DNA of 64,000 nucleotides from a virus (lineage: Duplodnaviria > Heunggongvirae > Uroviricota > Caudoviricetes). The stretch is taken from the IMG/VR virus record IMGVR_UViG_2880366365_000011; one strand, written 5' to 3'. The position numbers were made by a program. Shown piece after piece: positions 24,001 to 27,000 of this stretch (within the stretch, counting starts at the first letter, position 1; each line of letters opens with the position of its first letter).

Positions 24001-27000
24001 TGCTCATTGATAAACCTCATTACAGATTTAAGGGTGAACAAATCCCTGCCATTGCTGGCATTTTTAATCCGTTGGTATGGTGTTAATATGGCTGGAGGGT
24101 TATCCAGCCGGTGTTTCGTTATTCAGGTACAGCGATACTTTTTTTACCGGGAGGCATTCACCAGAAATTTTTTGCTCGTCTCTTGCCTGGAGGCAGGATT
24201 CTTTACTGGCATAAATTCCGGTAATCACATTCTGTGATTCACCCGTTATAAGAAAAACCGTCATCATCAGTGCAAATGCTGAAGTCATTGACGTTCTCCG
24301 AAAATACCAAGTTCAAGAAGAGCAATTCGGGAAAGTATGGAATTATCATTGAGCAGATAAGGCTCATATTTCCTCATGTTAATGGCATCTTCAGTAAACT
24401 CCCGGTTACTGAGCAGAACACCAATATCAAAACAACCTTCAGACGTATTAACGTTTGGTAATAACGTTTCCATTATCGCGTCCTCAACAATGAATTTTGT
24501 GATGCAGTGCCTGGTGCCTCCAGGTGACGTTAACCAGTTAACAATTAACGCCGGATACAGAGAATCCACCCATAACACTGTTTTTGGTTTTAACTGTTCC
24601 GCGTGCGCTTAGCCGCATTCACCGCATCACAAAATTCACTTTAAAAAGGGCGGCAGAGCAGCCACGGAGTAAAACTGATACCGCCAAACGTCACCAGAAA
24701 ATTGATAACAGAGGGCGTTGCAGCGGGGTTGTCACTTAAGCGTATGGTCAACCTGACAACCCGGTGTCCTCAATGGGGAAGGAATAACCCCGCCATACTT
24801 ACCGCCGCGCCATTTCGCGGAGTGCCACAACCGGAAGCGCACGTTCGAAGAAATCTAACGACAAGCCTTCTAAGGGAAAGAGCTTCGCCGTACGCTTTCG
24901 CGTTATGCACTGACTTTTCAGGGAAATATCCTTTCAGTAAACTGTCAGTACCGGATTCTTATCCGTGTCCGGCGCACGACCACACGTGACAGCGTGTTGG
25001 TCTCCATTTTTAACCCAGAACCTCAATGGAGGATAAAATGCCAAACAAAAAAAGAAATCCGCTTATTGAAAAACAGATTGAATGCCTGGTAAATCAACTC
25101 AGGCAATCAGGGTTATTAAAAACTCATTCAGAGTTGAGGCTCACAGAATCAGCATTCGACGATAAATTAAATAATGTCCTTTATAATGGCATTATTGATT
25201 TTAATCGTTCTGTTGGTCGCCGCGGCCCTGCTGGTGTTTCCTTATAATTACCAGTCAATCCAGAGTGGACCGTGTTCAGCGTAAATATAACTGTACACAT
25301 CCAGATTATATTTGTGGTCTGTTAAGAACAGGCCGCAAATACATGCCGAAGCTTCCAGTGCAGCGGCTCTGTTACTGAATAACCATGTAGCAACATTCCA
25401 GCGTTTTTCTGCATCCCAGTCTTTCTCAAGGCCTGATACCATGAAGAAACCGTTAGTGTTGCCATCAAATAATTCTGTTTCCAAATTTTTAAGCAATGCC
25501 TGATGGACTCTTGCCAGGTATTCCGCCGGAATTTCGCCACGAATTCTGATGAGATTGTCATAAACAAACATGTTCCCCGCATATGGCGATTTTTCTTTCT
25601 TGTTTTTTAAACCAGCATCATGAGCAAACTGATCAATTTCTTCTTCCGTTGGTTTCGTATTGATGTTTTGCGCTGTCGTTTCTGCAATTTTATTTGCCAC
25701 ACTCTCTGAGTCGTGTTTATTTATAGACGCACAGAAATACAATCCGGTAAACGCATCGCGCACATTACGAGCCATATTATCAGTGTCTTTTTTCGTTACC
25801 GATTCCAATTCAAGTTCGTTCAGACGATGACGAAGTGTGTGTGCTGCAATCTCCTGGATTGAAGGAGGTAAATCTTTAAATTCCATCGTCAACCTCATCA
25901 GTCAGTGTTTCTGGCTAACCAGCGACGCGCGCCAGCTTCAGTTTTAAACGTTTTGCTTTTGGTATACGTCATCGCGGTGAACGTACCGTCCTGGTTGGGG
26001 AACACGCCACATACCAGAGATTCGTTGTTGCCAAGATTGAGCGTATCCATGTTGACCTCATTTCCCCTTAACGCCGGGGTAGCGGAACAAAAACCTGCTG
26101 CATAGTTATTAAAGTTGAACCCTGCCGTCATGTTCTTACGCCTCGGGCTGGCTACTTAACCCCTGACCACTGCCTGGTAACTCGAAGTATTGCCCTGCAT
26201 TCTGTGGGGCGGGGTGAGGGAATGAATGAAGTTTAGAAAAACGAACATTTAAGGTCAATGTTTTTTTATCAAAACATTTTAAGCAGGCAGCTGTTACGCC
26301 ATCACTACGATGGCATACAGTTAATCAAATAGATGAGGTTGGTTAAATATCTTGTTGAATTTTAAAGCATACTCCCAATATGCAAGATAGATCATCCAGC
26401 ATAATTGAAGGGTAGCGAGGATTCGTGGGGACTAAAAGAATATCCGGCCCTTCTATCTCCAGTTTGCGAATGACAGGCGTTGTGGTCCCTTTGGGTAAGG
26501 CAAGGACAATATTTCCTGGTTGTACGATTCGATCGGGATCAACAAAAACTGTTGAACCATTTGGGATGGAAACTCCACCACCAGATGTCGACATACTGTC
26601 ACTCTCTAGAACAACAGCAAAGGTATTGGCCGGGATTTCTCCGACAAGCTGCACACAAGAGGTTATTGAGGAATTTTTCATATAATCACTCCAGCTTGCT
26701 GCCTGCTGAAGTGATAGTAGCGGAACCGTTTTTATCGGCGGTAAAGATAGATCAAGCGAATCACCTGTATTTAACTCTCCTCCATTAAGAAGCCAATTTT
26801 CGTTTACTTTCAATATCTTTGCCAGTGAACTTATGTAACGCGAGGACGGCGCTCCTCCACCGTTCATCCATTGACTTACGGAGCCTTTTGATGCGCCAGT
26901 GGCATTGACAAGGTCTTTGCCTTTCAAGTTTAGCGCATGCATACGTTGGGTTATGCGTTCAGATATTGTTTGCTTGTTCATGTTTTGATTTTAAAACACA

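Follow-up and report, generated by a model that had tools for sequence, protein, structure and literature searches.

What are the genes that follow directly on the repressor gene of a lambdoid prophage of Escherichia coli, and do they belong with the repressor in lysogeny or with the functions that it keeps silent? The question is raised by IMG/VR virus record IMGVR_UViG_2880366365_000011 (Caudoviricetes), of which a stretch of 64,000 nucleotides (nt), here called the window, was analyzed. On its minus strand, downstream of a CI-type repressor gene (cI, 26343-26981), two co-directional open reading frames (ORFs) lie where a sequence-only reading had put them: ORF1, of 77 amino acids (aa), at 25898-26131, and ORF2, of 212 aa, at 25248-25886. 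That reading offered two interpretations of the pair, as exclusion genes in the slot that rexA-rexB occupy in lambda (the rex/sieB slot), or as the first genes of the early-left (pL) operon upstream of dicF and dicB, and the evidence set out below backs the latter. The region is very probably the promoter-proximal part of a dicBF-type early-left (pL-like) operon in a defective lambdoid prophage of the E. coli O157:H7/O121 type, and the constant companion of ORF2 is not ORF1 but a convergent 69-aa gene that had been overlooked. The operon type and the family of ORF1 are already known; what appears to be new is a convergent two-gene cassette, with ORF2 and its partner falling in no described family.

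The operon downstream of cI

Identification of the operon as dicBF type rests on YdfA, DicF, DicB, a DUF1482 protein and a RecE fragment, encoded in the same order as in the Qin prophage of E. coli K-12 and in the functional temperate phage Tritos. Beyond ORF1 (YdfA, see below), and likewise on the minus strand, come the DicF small RNA (24648-24699; Rfam RF00039, 75 bits against a gathering score of 48, E 5.5e-16), for which a terminator scan reported a terminator-like stem after DicF at 24665-24650; the cell-division inhibitor gene dicB (24285-24473; Pfam DicB 2.7e-36, also annotated by the Prokaryotic Genome Annotation Pipeline, PGAP); a ydfD-type DUF1482 gene (24100-24288; Pfam 2.9e-15); and, as the ydfE-equivalent end of the operon, an N-terminal fragment of RecE/exonuclease VIII (22763-24007; equivalog model positions 1-409 of 877, incomplete according to PGAP). 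A sub-threshold Rfam match to STnc100 (24441-24650, minus strand; 34.7 bits against a gathering score of 47, E 4e-5) spans the DicF-dicB spacer and the start of dicB.

The Qin order is dicA, dicBp-ydfA-ydfB-ydfC-dicF-dicB-ydfD-ydfE, and that found here is cI, ydfA, X, DicF, dicB, ydfD, recE, where X stands for ORF2 and the convergent 69-aa gene. As in Qin, the repressor gene is directly upstream, a promoter lies between it and ydfA, and dicF is preceded by a conserved, long untranslated junction; as in Qin and Tritos, a divergent cro/dicC-type gene adjoins the repressor gene, here a P22_Cro-family gene on the plus strand (~27073-27315; 1.7e-15). The repressor differs, being a 212-aa CI with an N-terminal helix-turn-helix (HTH) domain and a C-terminal protease domain (Pfam HTH_3 2.4e-4, Peptidase_S24 8e-13; phrog_4, transcriptional repressor, 5e-40) rather than the 135-aa DicA; the HTH regions of the two are 37% identical. 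The second difference is that ORF2 and the 69-aa gene occupy the place of ydfB and ydfC, neither of which is present. All the dicBF-type features looked for here were otherwise found, the promoter being an in silico prediction. In K-12, dicBp lies upstream of ydfA and gives a polycistronic RNA from which RNase III and RNase E excise DicF; YdfA, YdfB and YdfC are uncharacterized (PMC10448788, PMC5069750).

ORF1, to which no recognizable motif had been ascribed, is by homology YdfA, a known early-left gene product; by the refutation criterion that the sequence-only reading itself had set, this is clear homology to such a gene. It matches DUF1391 (PF07151) at 102.1 bits against a cut-off of 27.3 (Pfam 1.2e-29; profile positions 1-47 of 48, ORF1 residues 29-75), is 88% identical to K-12 YdfA over 49 aa, aligned from internal Met28, and belongs to phrog_751 (6e-45; annotated 'unknown function'). 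The 77-aa frame is the longest ORF, and its conserved core (25898-26050, 50 aa) begins at Met28, as judged from the span of the Pfam match, the alignment with K-12 YdfA, the limit of K-12 DNA similarity, which starts just 38 nt upstream of the Met28 ATG (26050), and the PGAP call of a 50-aa protein from 26050. Translation thus probably starts at 26050, giving 50 aa, with some uncertainty left because gene callers give a long, 78-aa form in Tritos and in the heteroimmune locus L008. A small hairpin (CCCC-GGCGTTAA-GGGG, 26064-26079), conserved in K-12 and L008, directly precedes the Shine-Dalgarno (SD) sequence that serves the short form of ydfA, the translation of which it might control. In the literature, DUF1391 was found in one genome-wide association study table only.

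Control of the operon was addressed by an operator scan, which the sequence-only reading had proposed for 26132-26342 as a means to place pL. The window contains exactly three copies of the motif GTTTTGATwwww(w)AAAC, against 0.16 expected, and none of 100 shuffles reached three. The interval from cI to the cro-like gene holds two of these 16-17-mers (OR; 26982-26998 and 27028-27044); the third (OL; 26259-26275) abuts the -35 hexamer of a sigma-70-like minus-strand promoter between cI and ORF1 (-35 TTGACC at 26258-26253, 17-nt spacer, -10 TAAACT at 26235-26230), and a weaker, half-matching copy (26231-26249) lies over the spacer and the -10. At locus L008 the promoter hexamers have the same aligned position and the downstream leader is conserved, with different operator repeats. 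We take this predicted CI operator and promoter as the equivalent of pL/dicBp, and the assignment of the operon is well supported. In K-12, DicA represses the corresponding promoter, dicBp, 22-fold, and ydfABC-dicF-dicB-ydfD is expressed from it (PMC10448788).

The promoter bears directly on the first interpretation, in which ORF1 and ORF2 would be lysogen-expressed superinfection-exclusion genes co-transcribed with cI. Like rexA-rexB or sieB, they lie just downstream of cI on the same strand, ORF2 is uncharacterized, and cI has no canonical terminator: a hairpin directly 3' of its stop codon (GCCAUCGUAGUGAUGGC core, 26291-26320, minus strand; -16.5 kcal/mol, z = -2.3) is without a U-tract and was not detected by the terminator scan. 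On the other hand, cI and ORF1 are separated by an operator and a promoter, a repressor controls the orthologous promoter of K-12 (PMC10448788), and ORF1 is YdfA, the first gene of a dicBF lytic-type operon that is found also in functional phage Tritos and that runs here into lytic-type functions. In Salmonella, ORF2 travels without ydfA and without the window's cI. There was no sequence similarity to Rex or SieB and no match to these or to defense families in Pfam, NCBIfam, PADLOC or the annotated PHROGs. RexB and SieB are inner-membrane proteins; here, by contrast, transmembrane-like segments are missing and the proteins appear soluble, the maximal 19-residue Kyte-Doolittle means being 0.42 for YdfA, 1.16 for ORF2 and 0.22 for the 69-aa protein. 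We consider an exclusion role of the rex/sieB kind highly improbable.

ORF2 and its convergent partner

The close spacing of ORF1 and ORF2 was as first described: the TGA of ORF1 (25898-25900) is separated from the ORF2 ATG at 25886 by 11 nt (tgaggttgacg), with GAGG 7 nt upstream of the ATG as a ribosome-binding site. The 212-aa start appears correct because the N-terminal sequence MEFKDLP is conserved in all homologs, and both ORFs are taken to be real genes in view of the DUF1391 score of ORF1 and the ratio of nonsynonymous to synonymous substitution rates (dN/dS) of 0.27 between the E. coli and Salmonella copies of ORF2. The two are not a conserved pair, however. DNA of the ydfA region was matched in ~4400 of 5426 complete E. 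coli genomes, versus 592 for ORF2, and ORF2-type loci in Salmonella have no ydfA.

As for the nature of the ORF2 protein (WP_000394548), the absence of any motif noted in the sequence-only reading was borne out, in that no family match was obtained in Pfam, NCBIfam or PADLOC. A PDB profile search gave Noc alone, at E 0.16, which was taken as chance. ORF2 belongs over its full length to phrog_2151 (1.8e-147), which, like the PHROGs of the partner and of YdfA, is uninformative on mechanism because all are annotated 'unknown function'. The family is narrow: 153 matches were found among 5.8 billion clustered proteins, nearly all from Escherichia, and an exhaustive HMMER search of 1.84 billion representatives returned 35 clusters, all within this narrow family. 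A literature search found no mention of WP_000394548, WP_001133037, ybl81 or phrog_2151. Two other identities were considered and discarded: a Prp protease, since the family lacks an invariant Cys or His, and a relative of YdfB or YdfC, to which there is no similarity.

ORF2 has two parts, a helical N-domain (~residues 1-50/90) and an alpha/beta C-domain (~residues 98-212), with very different distributions. Many small early-operon proteins with unrelated C-termini, gp25 of Shiga toxin (Stx) phage PA2 among them, share residues 1 to ~50 of ORF2 (MEFKDLP...NVRDAFTGLY) at their N-terminus; the PHROGs of these relatives (phrog_1363, phrog_9419, phrog_6937 and phrog_33007) are likewise annotated 'unknown function'. 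The C-domain is highly conserved, with an FDGxxNG motif, W168, F170, S171 and E178 among its invariant positions, and occurs beyond Escherichia only in Salmonella prophages; a profile search with it added just the Salmonella variants. In one of these, P0143, a ~30%-identical C-domain is fused to another N-terminus. In another, P0139 (loci L009 and L010, 5001-5861), a CI-type HTH_3 domain, 41% identical to the HTH of the window's CI, is inserted between the N-terminal domain and the C-domain. Four contigs, representing two integration sites, carry P0139; its gene follows a cox gene and has the usual convergent partner.

This partner is the 69-aa gene on the plus strand at 25038-25247 (WP_001133037; a 73-aa form would start from 25026), the stop codon of which directly abuts that of ORF2. 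Its ATG is preceded by GGAGG at 5 nt. The protein falls over its full length in phrog_4274 (1.4e-51; annotated 'unknown function') and has no Pfam or PDB match. Partner homologs, 46-77% identical, lie beside every C-domain protein, including a Salmonella variant of 29% identity with another N-terminus; at all Salmonella C-domain loci the partner is convergent at the 3' end, either abutting or overlapping by 11-53 base pairs (bp). Among the complete E. coli genomes, the partner was found in 597 genomes at 744 places and the ORF2 C-domain in 592 genomes at 739 places, so that ~11% of these genomes carry the two, O157:H7 and O121 strains included. In an IMG/VR sample of 80 loci retrieved with the N-domain profile, all 51 evaluable loci, namely those extending beyond a complete C-domain, contained the partner; of six further loci with C-domain sequence, five were cut at contig ends and one had a truncated ORF2. 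Among 50,697 phage records there was none with the C-domain or the partner; just N-domain relatives were found there, in Stx phages.

The two genes have also diverged in step. Between E. coli and Salmonella copies, the synonymous substitution rates (dS) are 0.55 and 0.54 and the dN/dS ratios 0.26 and 0.27, alike for both genes, and in the most distant copy, where synonymous sites are saturated, the 69-aa protein keeps its length and 52% identity. The matching dS, the low dN/dS and this retention of length and identity at saturation indicate that ORF2 and the 69-aa gene are real and co-diverging. ORF2's constant companion is thus the convergent gene, not ydfA, and it is likely that the two form a cognate functional pair.

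These data bear on the possibility that there is no joint function at all, and that neighboring accessory genes, or ORF2 and a small ORF that is no gene, are merely held together between recombination-prone conserved flanks. Both flanks are indeed conserved (see below) and could drive cassette exchange, and functional domains were not detected. Against this stand the length and identity kept by the 69-aa ORF at saturated synonymous sites, its dN/dS of 0.26 and strong GGAGG SD, and the survival of the pairing through replacement of the ORF2 N-domain and transfer between element types. A purely accidental association is improbable.

A cassette between constant flanks

Comparison with K-12 places ORF2 and its partner in a discrete segment. 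In a blastn alignment, ydfA (88%) and dicF-dicB (93%) flank a 928-bp segment (~24979-25906) that holds ORF2 and the 69-aa gene and stands in place of 450 bp with ydfB-ydfC in K-12. At locus L008, ydfB-ydfC and an N-domain cassette coexist. N-domain proteins fall into six C-terminal types, each with its own convergent partner type in a strict 1:1 correspondence (46, 23, 1, 1, 1 and 1 loci), and one Salmonella element (L004, 6001-7512) carries tandem N-domain cassettes of different type, each with its own partner and its own copy of the junction described next. The HTH_3 domain of P0139 is the sole known domain among the other cassette types and partners.

The junction (24951-25037) was delimited by alignment with K-12, L003, both copies in L004, and L008. 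It comprises CCGGAT..GTGTCCGGCGCAC (24951-24977), a hairpin (24982-24997) and the initiation region of the partner, ATGGAGGATAAAATG; similarity to K-12 resumes at 24978. The same junction lies upstream of every partner gene, with ATGGAGGATAAAATG or CAGGAGGGTGAAATG as the initiation region and a conserved SD, and it is present also in K-12, downstream of ydfC, with no cassette there. Its hairpin comes in two alleles that have wholly different stems (CACACG/CGTGT and CTCCAC/GTGGAG) at the same position. The element, which sits between the cassette and the DicF precursor, was seen also in L002 (5043-5200), L003, L004 and L008; it could act in the dicBF transcript as a processing or structural signal, or contribute to the promoter of the partner gene. 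In these alignments, then, two constant sequences enclose a variable core, which is made up of the C-terminal domain and the matching partner.

The cassette is not tied to the immunity region seen here. ORF2-type cassettes lie beside at least four unrelated immunity regions, namely a CI-S24 type, a Mu-type repressor, a 219-aa HTH_3 repressor and a P2-type C/Cox pair, and are therefore not part of one particular genetic switch.

The element that carries the cassette in the window is a 100% match to a prophage region of many E. coli O157:H7 and O121 genomes. The prophage is judged defective because an IS3-family element (28313-29526; HTH_Tnp_1 and rve ORFs) splits a DnaT-domain replication gene that is uninterrupted in strain TR01, and because int (22230-22781) and recE are truncated. 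The CI ORF is intact and identical in TR01 (L001, 10244-10882), for which RefSeq annotates just the C-terminal 112 aa as a 'LexA family protein', probably an annotation shortfall. After the cro-like gene comes a YdaT_toxin-family gene (27227-27724), as in Rac and Qin-type immunity regions. Two plus-strand ORFs of equal length, 1080 aa (5997-9239 and 47725-50967), with similar-sized ORFs around both, suggest two tandem lambdoid prophages with duplicated tail modules; in the matching region of TR01, nleG7 and insertion sequence elements lie between the two.

Possible roles of the pair

How might a repressed operon accommodate a gene that is read against it? In a lysogen, CI bound at OL would shut the promoter at 26258-26230, and inactivation of CI would yield a single leftward transcript through ydfA, ORF2, the DicF precursor, dicB, ydfD and the recE fragment. 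By homology with K-12 dicBp, ORF2 would then be silent under CI and made upon its loss; it would be the forward gene in a self-contained 928-bp cassette, swappable and standing in place of ydfB-ydfC. The partner would be read convergently, against the operon, from the constant junction that supplies its ribosome-binding site; since no plus-strand terminator-like site lies between the partner stop and pL, its transcript would be antisense to ORF2. This architecture would place the partner for expression in the lysogen, where it could counteract ORF2. On such a scheme, ORF2 may be an accessory effector deployed at induction or infection in host or inter-phage conflict, and the 69-aa protein its cognate antagonist or modulator, acting as a binding protein, through antisense transcription or transcriptional interference, or both. 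The reverse polarity, in which a lysogen-expressed partner is switched off by ORF2 upon induction, would be equally possible. Taken as a whole, a dicBF-type operon with a swappable cassette, in which ORF2 may be an effector and its partner a cognate antagonist, is the best explanation, and we give it somewhat better than even odds. The antagonistic mechanism taken by itself is less likely than not and is put forward tentatively, by analogy with known systems, and we infer, rather than observe, a physical interaction between ORF2 and its partner and any phenotype.

The analogies, neither of which is a homology, are of two kinds. In pore-forming colicin systems, an SOS-repressed colicin gene is accompanied by a constitutively expressed, oppositely oriented immunity gene; here, a forward gene under an SOS-type (S24) repressor is similarly followed by a small partner immediately downstream in opposite orientation. 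Polymorphic effector/immunity systems show 1:1 co-variation with constant flanks, and the constant N-terminal and variable C-terminal parts of the ORF2-type proteins, each type matched 1:1 to a small neighbor, resemble CdiA-CT/CdiI and Rhs-CT/RhsI. Unlike such systems, the cassette encodes no detectable toxin or immunity domain and its partner is a soluble rather than a membrane protein; secretion or lysis apparatus is lacking, and the cassette sits within a phage early operon. Of the features expected of toxin-antitoxin or polymorphic toxin loci, an adjacent, 1:1 co-varying pair is present and a recognizable toxin or antitoxin/immunity domain is not.

Several further observations weigh against an effector and its antagonist. 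Pfam, NCBIfam and PADLOC searches of the cassette members and their partners yielded no toxin, antitoxin, defense or anti-defense domain. A first AlphaFold2 model of ORF2 had a predicted local distance difference test score (pLDDT) of 60; the second, with Salmonella variants added, reached a moderate 68 (~80 in the C-domain) and gave only generic alpha/beta-sandwich matches, with no convincing fold relative. The 69-aa gene has no convincing sigma-70 promoter, the sole scan match overlapping its start codon (the junction was inspected by eye), and gene finders do not call some of the singleton partner ORFs, which share 130-165 bp with the forward gene. A counter-example is gp25 of PA2, which has the N-domain but no convergent partner. 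Because the hairpin after cI is without a U-tract, some read-through from cI into ydfA-ORF2 is possible in lysogens, where ORF2 is supposed to be silent. Lastly, the CI-type HTH of P0139 hints at a regulatory rather than an effector role.

That hint keeps alive a different reading, in which ORF2-type proteins would be developmental regulators, antirepressor-like or CII-like, that steer the lysis-lysogeny decision or the replication of their element, the convergent gene or its transcript forming part of the circuit. The weak ACT and ArgR-like matches obtained for ORF2 in the fold search point the same way. We regard such a developmental role as rather unlikely.

Alternatively, the pair might be a stand-alone defense moron of the abortive-infection or toxin-antitoxin type that protects the lysogen from other phages, its position in the operon being incidental. 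Consistent with this are the strictly cognate, co-diverging nature of the pair, the many allelic types with common constant flanks, as in defense hotspots, the presence of C-domain and partner in ~11% of complete E. coli genomes but in 0 of 50,697 phage records, and the defective state of the host prophage. On the other hand, PADLOC and Pfam gave no match, and the convergent layout differs from that of type II toxin-antitoxin operons. Moreover, ORF2 has no promoter of its own and follows ydfA at 11 nt with an SD, so that it would depend on the CI-repressed promoter. A free-standing defense function of this kind seems unlikely, if less so than the regulatory one.

A wider proposal builds on the effector and antagonist reading. 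Prophages and integrative elements of enterobacteria could harbor, in their early operons, a hitherto undescribed polymorphic system of two genes, of which ORF2 and the 69-aa gene would be one allele. It would combine a constant N-domain, interchangeable C-terminal effectors and matched convergent partners, with toxin/immunity-like or defense/anti-defense halves that would operate in opposite states, lysogeny and induction. This is speculative, and the odds are against it as it stands.

The original proposal of an undescribed operon thus largely resolves into known biology, leaving the cassette architecture as a specific lead in a medically relevant pool of prophages. Products of dicBF operons reprogram the host: DicF and DicB block cell division, DicB protects against phages, and DicF affects the virulence of enterohemorrhagic E. 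coli (PMC5069750, PMC10448788). The slot after ydfA, as a cassette site, offers a handle on the unannotated prophage genes of this operon. If the pair proved to be without phenotype, the finding would shrink to the correct annotation of a known operon; if effector and antagonist are indeed divided between the lysogenic and the induced state, the conflicts of prophages with the host and with one another would gain a new layer in a pathogen with many lambdoid prophages.

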